A DNA stretch of 64,000 nucleotides, from IMG/VR virus record IMGVR_UViG_3300005077_000565, positions 64,001 through 128,000 of that record. One strand, written 5' to 3'. The number at the start of each line of letters is the position of its first letter. Position 1 is the first letter of the stretch. Below, piece by piece: positions 2,996 to 10,244 of the stretch. The stretch is from a virus. The notes beneath the pieces are model-generated. The model did no database searches. It had not been told where the DNA came from and was given only the letters and a program-made list of their open reading frames with translations. The position numbers and the translations under genes are program-made.

Positions 2996-4479
2996 TTAGA
3001 TGGGGAATAACTGCGAACAGTCATGATGCCAGTGTGGCAGTTCTTGACGGTGACCGAATATTATTTGCAGCGCACAGTGAACGTTCTAGTGGGGCGAAAA
3101 ACGACCCTTTTTTAAATAAAAAAATATTATCTCAGGCACTGGAATTTGGTGAGCCTGAAGAAGTGCACTGGTATGAAACTGACTGGCTAAAACGAACACG
3201 ACAACTGTATGCCGGGCAGTGGTCCAGCGTGATAGATAACATAACCCCTGCAGAAACACTGGATGCTTTTGGTGTCAGCGCACATTTAACCCAGCATCGG
3301 CATCATGCTAGTCATGCTGCGGCCGGCTGGTATACTGCGCCGTTTCAAGAAGGTGCAATACTGGTAATTGACAGTATTGGTGAATGGGAATCACTGACAA
3401 TGTGGACTGGCCAGGGCACCAGTATGGTTAAACGATTTAGTCAGAATTACCCCGACAGTGTCGGCCTCTGGTACAGTGCCATGACACAACGTATTGGTCT
3501 AAAACCCAACGAAGAAGAATATATACTCATGGGCATGGCGGCCGCAGGCGACCCGGAACGATTTGTCACAGATATATTTGAAGACTTCTTTCATCCACTG
3601 ACGCCGGGAAGTCTAAAAATAAAATTAAAATACAACCTCCATCGCGGCTGTAGATGGTGGCGCCCTGAATTAACAGAATTTCAAGATCTTGCAGATATTG
3701 CAGCCGGAACTCAGGCAGTCTATGAAAAAATATTTGAGCATCTAGTTAAAACCACACAGGAATTGACAGGTCAGCGCAATTTAGTATTAATGGGCGGCTG
3801 TGCACTTAATTGTGTTGCCAACGGCCTAGCCTACAAATATTTTGAAAATGTCTGGATCATGCCCAATCCCGGCGACGCTGGCAGCAGTGTGGGGGCAGTG
3901 TTGAACCATATCAAAACCAAAATAGAGTATGTTACCCCCTATCTTGGCTACAGTATTGCTGGAAAGTATCCAGTTAACAGTGCATTAACGGAATTGCTTG
4001 ATACTGGTATTGTGGGCATTGCCAGCGGCGCGGCAGAATTTGGGCCCAGGGCCCTGGGCAATAGAAGTCTCATTGCCGATCCCCGCGGCCAGGAAATGAA
4101 GGATAAAGTTAATGCCATTAAGAAGCGTCAAGCCTTCCGTCCATTTGCACCAGTGATCAAACAGGAAAATCTACACCAACATTTTGAAATGCCTGCAGGA
4201 TGCAACGCCAGCCCCTACATGCAGTTCGTGGGTCGTTGCCGTCGTCCGGACCTGTACCCTGCAATAACTCACTTGGATGGCACTAGCAGGGTCCAGACTG
4301 TCACTGAACAACAACACCCTGATTTATACAGACTACTAACACTCTGGGAAGATCGTACTGGGTGCCCAATACTGCTGAATACCAGTTTAAATATCAAAGG
4401 CGAACCCATGGTTGATGACGAAGCCGACGCCAACCGCTGGGTAGAAAAATATAAAGTCAACGTAGTGACTTCAGATTAA
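2992..4479 (+). CDS. Carbamoyltransferase (NodU/CmcH/TobZ family)
   Basis: SHDASV, HHASHAA, GGCALNCVAN, EFGPRALGNRS, RPFAP, LNTSLN. Confidence 0.93.
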   Translation: MIRWGITANSHDASVAVLDGDRILFAAHSERSSGAKNDPFLNKKILSQALEFGEPEEVHWYETDWLKRTRQLYAGQWSSVIDNITPAETLDAFGVSAHLTQHRHHASHAAAGWYTAPFQEGAILVIDSIGEWESLTMWTGQGTSMVKRFSQNYPDSVGLWYSAMTQRIGLKPNEEEYILMGMAAAGDPERFVTDIFEDFFHPLTPGSLKIKLKYNLHRGCRWWRPELTEFQDLADIAAGTQAVYEKIFEHLVKTTQELTGQRNLVLMGGCALNCVANGLAYKYFENVWIMPNPGDAGSSVGAVLNHIKTKIEYVTPYLGYSIAGKYPVNSALTELLDTGIVGIASGAAEFGPRALGNRSLIADPRGQEMKDKVNAIKKRQAFRPFAPVIKQENLHQHFEMPAGCNASPYMQFVGRCRRPDLYPAITHLDGTSRVQTVTEQQHPDLYRLLTLWEDRTGCPILLNTSLNIKGEPMVDDEADANRWVEKYKVNVVTSD

Positions 4480-5666
4480 TGACAACGAATAAAAAAACTG
4501 CCAATCATGTAACTGCCAGGCCTTTTGTACAGGAAACATCATTCAAGAAGGATGACTACTGGGGTGAAGTCTGGGACCGCACCAAAAACTTTGGTGCCAA
4601 CGAGCGAGTGGCCAGCACCACCGGTAAATATTGTGCTAAACCATTTACCTGGTTTGAAATACAGATCGACGGTCGTGTGTTCATGTGCTGCCCTACCTGG
4701 CTACCTTATCCTGTGGGTAATGTATTTGAAAACACCATTTCTGAAATATGGAACAGCGAACGTGTGATTAAAATCAGAGAGTCTATCTACGATGGATCTT
4801 TTAAGTATTGTAACAAACCGCTGTGTCCTGATATACAGGCTGGGTATCTGAAAGACTTAAATGAAATACCGGCCGCTGATCGTTGGATAGTTGACCAGAC
4901 TGGGTTTCCGAAAAATATAAATTTTAGCACTGACGAGAGCTGCAATTTAAGTTGCCCCAGTTGCCGTACCAGCAAAATTCTGCATAGTTCTGGTCCTGAT
5001 TACGACCATCGTCAATTATTAGACGATAAAATTTGGTCTGAAATAATGGCAAGACCCAAGGACATAGACATTAATATACACATTACTGGCAGCGGTGACC
5101 CTTTTGGTAGTAAAATATTTCGTGAGCGCCTCCTCAGTCTAGACGCCACAGAGCGCCCAAACATGCGCTTCCATTTTAAAACCAATGGTGTAATGCTGAC
5201 GCCAAAAATCTGGGAACAATTACATCGTATACATCGAAACATAAAAAATATACACATTAGTTTTGATGCCGGCACTGAACAAACCTATAACATAACACGT
5301 CGCGGTGGTGATTGGAATACATTAATTGAAAATATGCGAGCTCTGGACCCAATAGCACGCGACAACGGTATACAATTATTCTATGATTATGTAGTTCAGG
5401 CTGCTAATGCAACTGAAATGCTGGATTTTTGTAAACTAATTAATGAAATTAGTCCAAATTATTATCTCCTACATTTTACACGTATCAGTGACTGGGGGAC
5501 CTGGCCCACACAGGAATTCGAGCGTCAGGCAGTCTGGATGGAGTCACATCCCGATCATCAGGCCTGGTTGCAGCATATTGCCAATCCAGAGTTTGATAAA
5601 TATCGCATTAACTGGGCAAATAATGCGCAGTTTAGAAAAATTGCAATAGAAAAATTCCGAGGTTAA
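4479..5666 (+). CDS. Radical SAM protein with N-terminal SPASM-like domain
   Basis: CNLSCPSC, ITGSGDPF; N-terminal YCAKPF..MCCP..YCNKPLCP. Confidence 0.88.
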   Translation: MTTNKKTANHVTARPFVQETSFKKDDYWGEVWDRTKNFGANERVASTTGKYCAKPFTWFEIQIDGRVFMCCPTWLPYPVGNVFENTISEIWNSERVIKIRESIYDGSFKYCNKPLCPDIQAGYLKDLNEIPAADRWIVDQTGFPKNINFSTDESCNLSCPSCRTSKILHSSGPDYDHRQLLDDKIWSEIMARPKDIDINIHITGSGDPFGSKIFRERLLSLDATERPNMRFHFKTNGVMLTPKIWEQLHRIHRNIKNIHISFDAGTEQTYNITRRGGDWNTLIENMRALDPIARDNGIQLFYDYVVQAANATEMLDFCKLINEISPNYYLLHFTRISDWGTWPTQEFERQAVWMESHPDHQAWLQHIANPEFDKYRINWANNAQFRKIAIEKFRG

Positions 5667-5667
5667 T

Positions 5668-6873
5668 GTGTCCGAGCAAAAACCAAAACAAAAATTAGAC
5701 CACATCACAGCAAAGCCATTTGTTGATGACAATGAAATACTGAACAGCAGATTCTGGGGTAGTGTTCATACTAGAAAACGTAATTTTAACAGTACCGAGC
5801 ATCATATATCTCCGGCTGGTAAGTATTGTGACAAGCCCTTTACCTGGCTGGAGTTTAATGGACACGGTCGAGCCTTTATGTGTTGTCCAACCTGGTTGCC
5901 CTACTCTGTTGGCGACGTTTCCGTGGATAGTATATCATCAATCTGGAACGGCGTACGTGCCAAGATGATAAGGCGTTCAATTTTTGACGGTTCCTACAAA
6001 TACTGTAATGTACCACTGTGTCCGGATATTCAATCTAATATATTACCGGAATTGTCTACTATTGATCAATCGCAACGCTGGACAGTTGACCCCACTGGTT
6101 TCCCTAAACATATTATTTTCAGTACTGATGAAAGTTGTAATCTTTCTTGTCCTAGCTGCAGGATTGGAAAAGTACTGCATGCTGATGGTCCTGAATACGA
6201 AAGGAGAAAACGTCTAGACGACAAAATCTGGGATGAAATACTGGCACAGCCTCTGGATATTGACTTGACTATACATATCACTGGCAGTGGCGATCCTTTT
6301 GGTAGCAAGGTTTTTCGAGAACGTCTACTGGGGCTAGATTTAACTGAGCGTCCAAATATAAAAATAGTTCTTAAGACCAATGGGGTGATGTTAACTCCTA
6401 AAATCTGGGGGCAACTACACCGCATACACCGAAACATAACTGCTATAAACATTAGTTTCGACGCCGCCACTGAAAAAACATACAACCTAATACGTCGCGG
6501 CGGACACTGGCCCACGTTGCTGGAAAATGTCCGGCATCTGGATCCATTGGCTAAAGAACTTGGTATTCGACTTTTCTATGATTACGTAGTACAGTTTAGC
6601 AACTCTGCGGAACTACTGCCCTTCTGTAAACTTATAGCGGAAATAAGTCCCAGCTATCAGCATGTGCAATTTACACGCATCAGTGACTGGGGCACCTGGC
6701 CCAGGCCACAGTTTGAGCACGAAGCTATCTGGATGGCCACTCACCCACATCATGAAAATTGGCTAATGCATATTTCAGATCCCGAGTTCAACAAATACCG
6801 TGTACACTGGTCTAATAATTCTCAATTCAGACGTCAGGCCATTGAAAAATATGGTCCGCGGAGCAACATATGA
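5668..6873 (+). CDS. Radical SAM protein, tandem paralogue of 4479..5666
   Basis: CNLSCPSC, ITGSGDPFGS; colinear with the upstream gene along its length. Confidence 0.88.
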   Translation: MSEQKPKQKLDHITAKPFVDDNEILNSRFWGSVHTRKRNFNSTEHHISPAGKYCDKPFTWLEFNGHGRAFMCCPTWLPYSVGDVSVDSISSIWNGVRAKMIRRSIFDGSYKYCNVPLCPDIQSNILPELSTIDQSQRWTVDPTGFPKHIIFSTDESCNLSCPSCRIGKVLHADGPEYERRKRLDDKIWDEILAQPLDIDLTIHITGSGDPFGSKVFRERLLGLDLTERPNIKIVLKTNGVMLTPKIWGQLHRIHRNITAINISFDAATEKTYNLIRRGGHWPTLLENVRHLDPLAKELGIRLFYDYVVQFSNSAELLPFCKLIAEISPSYQHVQFTRISDWGTWPRPQFEHEAIWMATHPHHENWLMHISDPEFNKYRVHWSNNSQFRRQAIEKYGPRSNI

Positions 6874-7640
6874 AAATTCAGTTACTGTCACTCCCGCGAT
6901 CTGGTAGTACCTATCTTTATGGAGTTCTAAGAAATGCAGTCGCCCCTGCGCAACCAGTGGACATGTTTAACGAACCCTTTAATTTTAATGCTAGGTATCG
7001 TCAAACTATGCCAGACGTCCGTAAAATTGAAATAATACAGCAAAAAATACAGCAATGTAAAAACACCACAGATTTGGTGATAAAAAATCACATAAATCAT
7101 TTTGATAATATTAACCAATATCATCTTAAAGATGAGTTTAACAGTATCAGCTGGGATACTATTGTACTAATACGGCGCGATCTTTTTAAAACTGCTATCA
7201 GCCTATCCACAAGTCGCCTAAATAAAGAATGGATAAAGTATCGAGAAGTACAAACTCCATTTAAAATTGATCCAGAATTTTTTATAGATCAATTACATTA
7301 TGTGGTTAGTATGATTCATGACATAACTCACAATGTGCACAGTTTTAGATATAGTCAGGTGTTGTTTTACGAAGGTCTAACTTTTAATCATGAGTCTGAC
7401 TTTAACCGAATTTCGTTTAATCCGCAATTTGACATTGATCGCAGGCGCGACCTTTTCCCCGATCACCCTATGTTTGTTGAAGAATTACACTGGGTTGACA
7501 AGGCCCCGGATAAGCAATTATTAATTGAAAATTATGGCGAATTGGAATCGTTGGCCAGGCAGACTCTAGCTAAAGTCCGTGATCGAAGATTTGCGATCAG
7601 GGGCACCAAGTTAGTCAATGTAGTTTGTAAAATGAATTGA
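6870..7640 (+). CDS. Sulfotransferase-like protein (P-loop sulfotransferase fold)
   Basis: N-terminal SLPRSGSTYL 5'-PSB loop, FNEPF, LIRRDLFKTAIS (3'-PB-like R..S), FYEGL. Confidence 0.7.
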   Translation: MKIQLLSLPRSGSTYLYGVLRNAVAPAQPVDMFNEPFNFNARYRQTMPDVRKIEIIQQKIQQCKNTTDLVIKNHINHFDNINQYHLKDEFNSISWDTIVLIRRDLFKTAISLSTSRLNKEWIKYREVQTPFKIDPEFFIDQLHYVVSMIHDITHNVHSFRYSQVLFYEGLTFNHESDFNRISFNPQFDIDRRRDLFPDHPMFVEELHWVDKAPDKQLLIENYGELESLARQTLAKVRDRRFAIRGTKLVNVVCKMN

Positions 7641-7664
7641 CTATACTGACATATATGTTATATT
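7637..7664 (+). promoter_or_regulatory. Sigma70-like promoter upstream of the APS kinase gene
   Basis: TTGACT-16 nt-TATATT with extended TG. Confidence 0.45.
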
Positions 7665-7674
7665 ATTACTAATT

Positions 7675-8097
7675 ATGAAAATTCTTATTTTTGGATTACC
7701 CGGCAGCGGCAAGAGCACACTGGCAAAACCTTTTTCAGAACTAATTGGTGGAGTCTGGCTGAATGCCGATCAGGTTCGTGAAGAATACAACGACTGGGAT
7801 TTTACACCCGAGGGGCGTATTCGACAGGCACAACGTATGAGATATCTTGCCGACGGTGTCGTGAAAGCAGGAAAGATTGCAGTGGCAGATTTCGTTTGCC
7901 CTACAGAGAAAGCTCGTCTGGAGTTTGCACCTGACTACACCGTCTGGATGGACACCATCAAGTCTGGTCGTTTTGAAGATACCAATAAAATTTTTGAAAT
8001 CCCGGCCAACTACGACTACCATGTCGCCAATTGGTTTGACGATACACACGAGCAGCTAGCCAAAGTAGTGGCTGCCTATATGCGTCGTGGGGGTTAA
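7675..8097 (+). CDS. cysC: Adenylyl-sulfate (APS) kinase-like protein
   Basis: GLPGSGKSTLA P-loop, LNADQVR, DFTPEGRIRQ, FVCP. Confidence 0.75.
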   Translation: MKILIFGLPGSGKSTLAKPFSELIGGVWLNADQVREEYNDWDFTPEGRIRQAQRMRYLADGVVKAGKIAVADFVCPTEKARLEFAPDYTVWMDTIKSGRFEDTNKIFEIPANYDYHVANWFDDTHEQLAKVVAAYMRRGG

Positions 8098-8292
8098 ATG
8101 GCAGAGTCACAGCGAAGATCACTGCTTAAAGCCATTAGCTGGCGTGTAACTGGTACTGTTGACACTTTCATCATCAGCTGGTTCATCACAGGGGAACCAC
8201 TGTTGGCTACCGGCATAGCCGCCACAGAAGTAGTTACCAAGATAGTCTTATACTATGTTCATGAAAGAGTATGGAGTAAAATAAATGTTTGA
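8098..8292 (+). CDS. DUF2061-type small membrane protein
   Basis: RSLLKAISWR..YYVHERVW signature. Confidence 0.8.
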   Translation: MAESQRRSLLKAISWRVTGTVDTFIISWFITGEPLLATGIAATEVVTKIVLYYVHERVWSKINV

Positions 8293-8326
8293 TTGGAAAA
8301 AACCCACCACCCAGATGCTGGGCTGA
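8285..8326 (+). pseudogene. Orphaned original 5' end of the nucleotidyltransferase gene (MFDWKKPTTQMLG*)
   Basis: 13-codon ORF matching the N-terminus MKKFDWQRPCTQVLG of 9116..9532. Its ATG overlaps the end of the DUF2061 gene. Confidence 0.8.
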
Positions 8327-9160
8327 TGCCACAAAATGATAAATAACTTTGTAGGATAAAAGTTATGGACTCATTTGTATATCGTTGGACTAACAAAACG
8401 CTGAATAAAATTTATATAGGATTCCACAAAGGTACGGAAGATGATGGCTACATTTGTTCGTCTGCTTCCAAAAAGTTTTGGGAAGATTTTAATAACCCCG
8501 CATACGTTTGGCAACGTGAAATATTATACAGGGGTATTATGAAAGAGTGTCAAGAAGTTGAACGTAAATTATTAGATGAGTTAGACATTACGTCAGAAGA
8601 TGTGTATAATCAACGAAATAATTTAATGTTTAATTTAGACAACGAAGTTAGAAATAAACTAAGCGAAGCGGCTAAAAAAAGAAATCAGAATCCTGAATAT
8701 ATTGAAAAGTTAAGGCAAGCAAGTAGAAAACAATGGGAGAATCCAGAACACCGACTTAACGTTAGTAAAGCAAACACTGGAAAAAAACATTCAAGTGAAA
8801 CAAAACAAAAGATAAAAGAAGCAAGGGCAAAACAATTAATCACTCCCGAATCAAGAATGAAAGCTGCTGAAAAATTAAAAGGCCATTCGGTATCAGTTGA
8901 AACACGACAAAAAATCAGTAAAGCACGTTTGGGAAGAAAGGTTGATAAGGAAACAATTTCGAAACGGTATGGAATAGAAACACCATATGGAATTTTTGAA
9001 AGTGTGTCTGCTTTTTTACGATACTCTAAAGAACATAGTTTGTATAAACTTAAAGATAAGTCATCTGTAATGAGACGGTTAAATGACTTCAATAATAACG
9101 AATGGAGATATCTAAATGAAAAAATTTGATTGGCAACGGCCATGTACACAAGTATTAGGA
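8327..9160 (+). mobile_element. Homing-endonuclease insertion carrying a replacement N-terminus for the target gene (boundaries approximate)
   Basis: A-rich segment between two diverged copies of the same 13 codons; encodes a GIY-YIG nuclease. Confidence 0.7.
8365..9129 (+). CDS. GIY-YIG homing endonuclease with NUMOD3-like repeats (Seg-like)
   Basis: FVYRWTN..KIYIGFH..DGYICS, conserved E in QEVERKL, YN; repeats GKKHSSETKQKI and GHSVSVETRQKIS. Confidence 0.88.
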   Translation: MDSFVYRWTNKTLNKIYIGFHKGTEDDGYICSSASKKFWEDFNNPAYVWQREILYRGIMKECQEVERKLLDELDITSEDVYNQRNNLMFNLDNEVRNKLSEAAKKRNQNPEYIEKLRQASRKQWENPEHRLNVSKANTGKKHSSETKQKIKEARAKQLITPESRMKAAEKLKGHSVSVETRQKISKARLGRKVDKETISKRYGIETPYGIFESVSAFLRYSKEHSLYKLKDKSSVMRRLNDFNNNEWRYLNEKI

Positions 9161-9532
9161 AGATTTCAGCCCTGGCATGCTGGTCATACTGCTTTGTTTA
9201 AGCGAGCGCTGCTGGAGACCGGACAGGTGTGTATTATGATTCGCGATGTCGGCGGCATTGTAGGCGCAGATGCTGGTGCAGGGCGCACTGCGGCACAGAC
9301 CGACAACCCGTTTGATTTAGAAACTGTTAAAACCAACATCATTAACGCTCTGGGAGCTGAAGGATTCGTCTACAATAATGACTACATTATTATGTTGGTG
9401 CCCAACATTGTGGACATCAGCTATGGCCGTGGTGTAGGGTACACGTTTACCCAGCATGATCTTGGTGAAGAAATTCACGCTATCAGTGCTACACAAATAC
9501 GTGCGCAACTGCGTGCAGAAGGTAAACTATAA
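9116..9532 (+). CDS. HIGH-superfamily nucleotidyltransferase (cytidylyltransferase-like; possible minimal ATP sulfurylase)
   Basis: GRFQPWHAGH, DNPF, ISATQIR. Confidence 0.8.
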   Translation: MKKFDWQRPCTQVLGRFQPWHAGHTALFKRALLETGQVCIMIRDVGGIVGADAGAGRTAAQTDNPFDLETVKTNIINALGAEGFVYNNDYIIMLVPNIVDISYGRGVGYTFTQHDLGEEIHAISATQIRAQLRAEGKL

Positions 9533-9533
9533 T

Positions 9534-10244
9534 ATGTTAGATGTATTCTTCTTGAGTTATGATGAAGAATTTGCTGATGAAAACTTCGAATTGTTGAAGA
9601 TGTTTGCTCCACACGCTAAACGTGTTCAAGGAGTTAAAGGTATTTTCGAAGCACACCAGGAATGTGCACGCCAGTCCAGCACCAATAACTTTTATGTGTG
9701 CGATGCCGACTGTGTTATTGACGAGCAATTTTCCTTTAAATTCATCCCTAGTAACGTCAAAGAAGCCTATCCTGGAACCAAAGAAAAAGACTGCGTGTTT
9801 ACCTGGCGCAGTGTAAATCCCATAAACAAATTGATCTATGGATACGGCGCAGTTAAATTGTTCCCTAAAGAAAAACTGCTCAACGCCCAGCACTGGAATG
9901 TTGATATGACCACTACTATCGGTGCACCTTTTGTACCGAAGTTTCAGATCAGTAACGTTACAGCATTTAACACTGATCCTTTCAATACCTGGAAGAGCGC
10001 GTTCCGTGAATGTACCAAATTGGCCAGCGCTATTATTCCCAATGGCAATAACCTAGATAACGAGTATCGACTTGGCGTCTGGTGTACACGTGGGGAACGT
10101 GAACGGTTTGGTAAATTCTGTATTGATGGTGCTCAGCAGGGTCGAGATTTTGGCGCATACTATAAAAATAAGCCCGAGGTATTGAAATTAATCAATGACT
10201 TTTCCTGGTTGCGAGAACAATATGACAATACTTACAACGACTAA
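9534..10244 (+). CDS. Glycosyltransferase-like protein (GT-A, DxD)
   Basis: DVFFLSYDE, GIFEAHQ, YVCDAD, YGYGAVKLFP, WKSAFREC. ATG 9534 follows the upstream stop. Confidence 0.65.
   Translation: MLDVFFLSYDEEFADENFELLKMFAPHAKRVQGVKGIFEAHQECARQSSTNNFYVCDADCVIDEQFSFKFIPSNVKEAYPGTKEKDCVFTWRSVNPINKLIYGYGAVKLFPKEKLLNAQHWNVDMTTTIGAPFVPKFQISNVTAFNTDPFNTWKSAFRECTKLASAIIPNGNNLDNEYRLGVWCTRGERERFGKFCIDGAQQGRDFGAYYKNKPEVLKLINDFSWLREQYDNTYND

Follow-up and report, generated by a model that had tools for sequence, protein, structure and literature searches.

A candidate GIY-YIG homing cassette in a large T4-like phage that carries a re-spelled start of its target nucleotidyltransferase gene

Gene organization of the locus

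The window, i.e., the whole stretch of 64,000 nt of DNA that was analysed, derives from a large T4-like phage whose IMG/VR record spans 168 kb and is about 47% complete. The genes and features of the locus are collected in Table 1. The original ATG of the nucleotidyltransferase (NT) gene, at 8285, overlaps the stop of the DUF2061 gene (8290-8292), and the same overlap is found in the contig L019, which carries no endonuclease. The working NT gene begins further downstream, overlapping the stop of the endonuclease gene by 14 nt, and a GGAG contained in the last endonuclease codons, 9 nt 5' of the new ATG (9116), would serve as the ribosome-binding site of this new start. The coordinates and sequences given in a preliminary description of this DNA were correct, including the 13-codon ORF at 8285, its overlap with the end of the upstream gene, and the ORF that overlaps the nuclease stop.

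Table 1. Coordinates of the features of the locus within the window.
Feature	Position	Strand	Evidence
DUF2061 membrane-protein gene	8098-8292	+	Pfam PF09834, E 1.9e-22
Stranded original NT 5' end, 15 codons and CA	8285-8331	+	Alignment with relatives
Element leader	8332-8364	+	GATAAATA box at 8338-8345, AGGA ribosome-binding site
Free-standing homing endonuclease gene, intact, 254 aa	8365-9129	+	phrog_314, NUMOD3, Foldseek
Element-borne replacement NT 5' end, new codons 1-17 and Gln-Pro	9116-9172	+	Junction alignment, GC3
Working NT gene, 138 aa, HxGH motif	9116-9532	+	Pfam PF01467
Whole inserted element, about 841 nt	8332-9172	+	Inferred by analogy with L008 4216-5057

The NT protein is cytidylyltransferase-like, and its motif region, GRFQPxHxGH, is NMNAT-like and resembles that of archaeal NMN adenylyltransferases according to NCBIfam and PDB motif matches. 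A search of GenBank phage DNA with positions 7675-9532 gave no match and thus no cultured relative, and the protein search yielded only relatives of 33-38% identity that are fused to kinases. APS-kinase-like, DUF2061, and sulfotransferase-like genes cluster with the NT gene. Since the NT motif is NMNAT-like and not ATP-sulfurylase-like, the reading of this cluster as a "PAPS pathway" calls for caution. The APS-kinase-like gene and the small HxGH NT gene are separate in the window (6870-9532), and they form a single fused protein in L117 (115-960) and in phrog_10255, a profile with the kinase at positions 2-124 and the NT at positions 123-228. The DUF2061 gene lies on either side of the NT gene, depending on the phage, and there are extra genes at the kinase/DUF2061/NT junctions of L045 (4436-5005; a 189-aa protein), L059 (3914-4125; a 96-aa ORF), and L081 (4440-4790; a 116-aa membrane protein), the cluster being a rearrangement hotspot. 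These three inserts have been considered as decayed endonucleases and rejected, the genes being unrelated.

The endonuclease ORF is AT-rich (GC 0.33). Its product matches phrog_314, "homing endonuclease" (2.2e-22), as well as NUMOD3 in three stretches (Pfam; E 6.3e-07), i.e., it has a modular DNA-binding region; its match to the Pfam GIY-YIG family is weak (E 0.02-0.5), and a PDB sequence search with the endonuclease profile gave no match. We have built an AF2 model from 14 homologues, the N-terminal domain of which reaches a pLDDT of 83-93. The top Foldseek matches of this model are the catalytic domain of I-TevI, 1LN0 and 1MK0 (prob 0.99, TM 0.60, 24-26% identity, E 0.037), followed by other GIY-YIG nucleases, and the residues Tyr6, Tyr17, Gly19, Arg51, Glu66, and Asn82 are invariant in the 14 homologues. 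The enzyme is predicted to have an I-TevI-like GIY-YIG catalytic domain, an assignment made mainly from the predicted fold, with a modest E value of 0.037.

The architecture of the endonuclease comprises the GIY-YIG domain, NUMOD3 linkers, and a C-terminal helical domain, and two kinds of C-termini were found among its relatives. The helical one is present in the window and in L008 (254 aa), and a Cys4 zinc-finger-like one is present in L084, L085, L086, L110, and L113 (207 aa). The endonucleases of L116 and L117 also have a zinc-finger-like C-terminus, with longer linkers, while the contig of L118 ends inside the endonuclease, so that its C-terminal part is absent. The dN/dS values among the copies range from 0.05 to 0.5, with most pairs at or below 0.3 and dS often saturated; these ratios indicate that the endonuclease is under purifying selection.

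The stranded start, the junction, and the replacement start

The stub of the NT gene is a 13-codon ORF (8285-8323) followed by a TGA (8324-8326). Its peptide is identical, in 13 out of 13 residues, to the NT starts of the endonuclease-free L004 and L007, and its DNA differs from that of endonuclease-free relatives in 7-11 of 47 nt and from the window's own new start in 20 of 47 nt. The homology continues past the TGA to 8331, and the TGA-TGC of the window aligns with Arg-Trp in L008, indicating that the stub once comprised 15 codons plus CA and has since decayed. Stop codons interrupt the stub in the window and in the cassettes of the zinc-finger type, and the stub is untranslatable or dead. 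It had been proposed that the same peptide is encoded twice with diverged DNA. The divergence of the DNA stands (20 of 47 nt), but the two peptides are only similar, i.e., PTTQML versus PCTQVL. Neither has the endonuclease split the gene, as was also proposed, since there are not two working parts: the stub is dead, and the whole NT is encoded downstream.

In L008 the stub is in frame with the endonuclease, forming an ORF of 279 aa (4169-5008), and the L008 enzyme could also be translated from the resident NT start, a start coupled to DUF2061. We have considered this fusion as a designed expression route and judged it incidental, because the stub is out of frame or has stops in the window, in L118, and in the zinc-finger type.

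The exact junction can be read in L008, whose NT protein after the insertion is identical to those of the endonuclease-free L019, L023, and L026. Between L008 and these three contigs, the left flanks share 97.1% identity over 3.8 kb and the right ones 99.0-99.5% over 3.7-4.1 kb. In the left arm L008 and L019 are the same through the TGGCA of codons 15-16, and in the right arm they are the same from the TGGCA of codons 18-19 on. Between them lies a foreign tract of 842 nt (L008 4216-5057) that comprises the leader, the endonuclease, and the new start, its last foreign codons being Gln-Pro. The 4 nt ACCT, replaced by the element in L008, are present only in the empty allele, so L019 did not arise from L008 by deletion. 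Co-conversion near the junction is almost absent: the left side has 2 mismatches in 900 nt, and the right side has 0 in about 770 nt.

This alignment places the cassette inside codon 16, in the conserved DNA that encodes G-R-W-Q-P-W-H. No 24-nt windows of the gene are more conserved than those that hold the insertion point (1.55-1.58 bits versus a gene mean of 1.18), and this conserved stretch encodes the HxGH nucleotide-binding motif. Since the window has no near-isogenic empty partner (the nearest has an 87% identical protein), its junction was transferred from L008. The break had been located earlier just before the R-x-QP motif, after Gly13; it actually lies two codons later, inside codon 16, after G-R-W and CA. 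The foreign tract also includes the Gln-Pro of the motif. On the other hand, the idea that the element inserts and restores the gene with its own 5' end agrees with the clean insertion, with a foreign 5' end, observed in L008 when compared with L019, L023, and L026.

In the window, GC3 is 0.18 in the new start, 0.25 in the endonuclease, 0.45 in the NT body, and 0.69 in the stub. Three features are common to the new starts of the window and L008: one additional residue after Met, Cys10 (for Thr), and Phe17 (for Trp, at the junction). None of the 79 empty alleles described below has the first two, and only that of L032 has Phe17. The low GC3, similar to that of the endonuclease, and the residues foreign to the empty alleles indicate that the replacement start is part of the cassette. 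The superfamily motif canonically has Phe, and thus the change from Trp to Phe should be tolerated. The rebuilt NT gene is a hybrid of a resident body and a cassette-derived start that is translationally coupled to the endonuclease.

The two types of cassettes have different starts. In the start that accompanies the helical C-terminus, TGG is changed to TTT at the junction. In the zinc-finger form, Q-M-L becomes M-L-L/M and the upstream block is shifted by 3 nt. Over 20 nt, the start of the zinc-finger type is present letter for letter in the endonuclease-free L081 and nearly so in L080, suggesting that the "recoded" start of this type may be a natural resistant allele beside which the endonuclease rides.

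Empty and filled sites among related phages

We have analysed the best 80 of 276 loci with NT relatives in viral contigs, all of these relatives being metagenomic contigs. In 79 of these 80 loci the endonuclease is absent and the NT start is uninterrupted. The empty alleles have the same start residues as the stub and lead straight into G-R-W-Q-P-W-H, with a Phe for the Trp of G-R-W in L032, so that the uninterrupted allele expected by the preliminary description in endonuclease-free relatives was indeed found.

Protein and pattern scans revealed related endonucleases in about eight further distinct contigs, i.e., L008, L118, L084, L085/L086, L113, L110-112, L116, and L117. In six backgrounds (window, L008, L084, L085/L086, L113, and L110-112) the NT gene directly follows the endonuclease, its start overlapping the endonuclease stop. 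L118 has the same left junction. In L116 and L117 the endonuclease is located downstream of a kinase-NT fusion and there is no replacement start, indicating that the cassette form is not universal in this endonuclease family. The resident's own NT start piece is stranded upstream in the window, L008, L084, L085/L086, L113, and L118. In L110-112 only half-sites of the element type are found upstream, where the neighbour is a carbamoyltransferase gene. An exact-pattern scan of the viral contigs for the element leader retrieved only four contigs, all of them already known.

The first ~173 residues of the endonucleases, which comprise the catalytic domain and the linker, are 71-73% identical to those of the window, and the identity of the accompanying NT proteins ranges from 49% to 81%. 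In the tree of the NT bodies the carriers are scattered: at least three changes are forced by well-supported branches, six being the most parsimonious number, and for three carriers the nearest kin in the tree is endonuclease-free. There is, in fact, a polymorphism of presence and absence at one fixed site among related genomes. As the contig comparison shows, near-identical phages may have or lack the cassette, and it is also found in distant NT backgrounds.

An 18-nt motif (8315-8332 in the window) is located 5' of every endonuclease copy and encodes M-L-G-R-W plus CA-Y, i.e., the left half of the target. This half-site is kept even in L110-112, L116, and L117. A search for it in all loci detected none away from the endonuclease copies, and no orphan half-sites, as traces of loss, were found in the endonuclease-free loci. 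The zinc-finger form has two copies of the half-site 20 nt apart (L084 2328-2365, L085 2932-2969, L113 593-630, and L110 1642-1679). The inner copy is identical across backgrounds and has a TAA at the Arg codon, and the outer one is native-like in L084, L085, and L113 and element-like in L110-112.

The leader contains, about 20 nt before the endonuclease start, a GATAAATA box (88% identical to L008, compared with 70% in the coding part) that is also found in L008, L084, L085, L110, L113, L117, and L118. This box matches 7 of the 8 positions of the T4 late promoter TATAAATA, and it may be the element's own late promoter. The counts of TATAAATA and GATAAATA in the window are not above chance, and thus the promoter reading rests only on the conservation of the box in the leader.

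Proposed mobility of the cassette and its relation to known systems

We consider it likely that the locus is a free-standing GIY-YIG homing cassette composed of a leader, an endonuclease, and the re-spelled first ~17 codons of the target NT gene. In the mechanism that we propose, the enzyme would cut both strands of the empty allele near TGGCA-ACCT-TGGCA, where CCTTG fits CNNNG, the cleavage motif of I-TevI. The break would be repaired from a co-infecting carrier, with the NT body as the right homology arm and the 18-47 nt of the stub or half-site as the left one; the retention of a half-site by every copy would be explained in this way. The re-spelled start would block both the self-cleavage of the carrier and the recombination between its two start copies, the blocking changes being presumably TGG to TTT in the helical type and the 3-nt register shift in the zinc-finger type. 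A likely origin would be an endonuclease that was located beside a naturally resistant allele and first entered a sensitive one by one-sided repair.

It is possible, although we regard it as doubtful, that the 18-20 nt half-site is a working part of the element, i.e., a built-in left homology arm and not debris. If true, the cassette would be self-sufficient for homing into phages with another upstream gene order. By analogy with I-TevI, which reportedly acts also as an autorepressor, the enzyme might use the half-site as an operator to repress its own promoter.

The free-standing endonucleases of phages are mostly intergenic and cut a neighbouring gene (PMC2988022), and in line with this habit the locus could be read as the scar of a single one-sided illegitimate recombination that was inherited vertically, with a Seg-like intergenic gene that cuts elsewhere and a duplicated start without any role in mobility. 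The intergenic arrangement of L116 and L117 and the existence of the zinc-finger type start as a natural allele in L080-82 agree with such a history. However, the same junction occurs in at least five NT backgrounds, with endonuclease-free nearest kin, and the cassette is the only difference between L008 and L019, the flanks showing essentially no conversion. The half-site is retained even at ectopic positions, and if there had been a single origin, each of the many exact losses after it would have needed to restore the ACCT and the native start. We thus find a vertically inherited scar unlikely. The frequent decay of homing endonuclease genes once they are fixed would fit instead a domesticated or inactive enzyme, e.g., a DNA-binding regulator of the sulfation-like cluster, or a frozen relic. 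I-TevI is said to double as an autorepressor, and the target-like half-site adjoins a late-promoter-like box. This option appears still less probable, given the intact ORFs, the low dN/dS, and the GIY, YIG, Arg, Glu, and Asn positions that are invariant across the 14 homologues; moreover, phages that are 99% identical differ in having the cassette, which speaks for a recent movement.

Many phage GIY-YIG enzymes are encoded within introns, and the endonuclease has a faint match, below the cut-off, to an NCBIfam group I intron endonuclease (E 0.0024), so that a self-splicing intron, an intein, or a ribosome-bypass element could be imagined to join the stub to the NT body in RNA or protein. We give almost no credence to this possibility. 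No Rfam family, and in particular no group I intron, matched positions 7600-9700 at E values up to 1, in agreement with the intron-less insertion postulated in the preliminary description, and the downstream NT is complete at its N-terminus and is equipped with a start and a ribosome-binding site of its own. A product joined to the stub would contain 15 residues twice, and the stub has stops in the window and in the zinc-finger-type cassettes.

The homing cassette that we favour resembles the mORFs of fungal mitochondria, which create hybrid genes in atp6 of Allomyces macrogynus and in atp6, atp9, cox2, and nad3 of Glomus (Beaudet et al., 2013, PMC3630166, citing Paquin et al., 1994). In both cases an endonuclease ORF moves together with a foreign and diverged version of one segment of the target gene, the native counterpart of this segment is displaced and unexpressed or dead, and the hybrid gene is functional without splicing; in both, the displaced copy resembles close relatives and the expressed copy is foreign (PMC3630166). 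However, the segment exchanged by the mORFs is the C-terminus, read in the same phase as the native gene upstream, and the native end is left stranded downstream. Here the exchange concerns the N-terminus and comes with a new start, whose start codon and ribosome-binding site are supplied, unlike in the mORFs, from inside the endonuclease gene. In addition, the mORFs are mostly LAGLIDADG and organellar, and here the enzyme is a GIY-YIG of a large T4-like phage.

The second similar system is the MobA cassette of T4-like phages, formed by an HNH endonuclease and the gene 60 bypass element (Bonocora et al., 2011, via bioRxiv 10.1101/2022.08.31.505936). The cassette swaps 55-75 nt of the topoisomerase gene for its own diverged homR (bioRxiv 10.1101/2022.08.31.505936). 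MobA shares with our locus a free-standing phage endonuclease in a highly conserved coding stretch, the deletion of a few dozen nt of the target, and a diverged replacement, as well as many independent insertions; an insert that protects against self-cleavage is a feature of MobA. It differs in its HNH enzyme, in the splitting of the topoisomerase into two functional polypeptides, and in the 50-nt bypass needed for protection. Compared with MobA, the locus has a GIY-YIG enzyme, a discarded 15-codon stub, and a whole protein encoded downstream, with no coding gap and no bypass.

The Seg endonucleases of T4, known for intronless homing, and mobE in nrdA of Aeh1 are also free-standing, reside in T4-like hosts, and have conserved targets (PMC2988022). 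The Seg enzymes share in addition the GIY-YIG and NUMOD-type architecture, but they are intergenic and spread by long co-conversion of the flanks, and mobE splits nrdA into two working parts (PMC2988022). This review of T4 mobile elements describes split genes but no duplicated or re-spelled gene start (PMC2988022), and a 2023 paper on an ICP1 nuclease describes none either. A literature search, limited in its reach, yielded no paper on an N-terminal form in phages. The mORFs and the MobA cassette are the closest described kinds.

The usual view is that a homing endonuclease can enter an essential or conserved gene harmlessly only by way of an intron, an intein, or an intergenic site. The locus would represent a third route in phages, in which the element carries a re-spelled gene start, with junctions resolved to the nucleotide and several independent insertions. 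It also offers a tractable natural system, since there are an intact enzyme, empty and filled alleles, and two variants of the DNA-binding domain, each with its own start, and the co-evolution of target immunity and gene rescue can be studied with it. The locus is also of use for annotation, since cassettes of this kind can be betrayed by tiny stub ORFs and hybrid gene starts in the genomes of phages.

Finally, a second ORF of 296 aa was detected in the same phage, outside the window (G000:C1:163921-164013 (-), L002). It matches residues 3-33 of the endonuclease with 55% identity (E 2.8e-6), and it is probably another GIY-YIG homing endonuclease.
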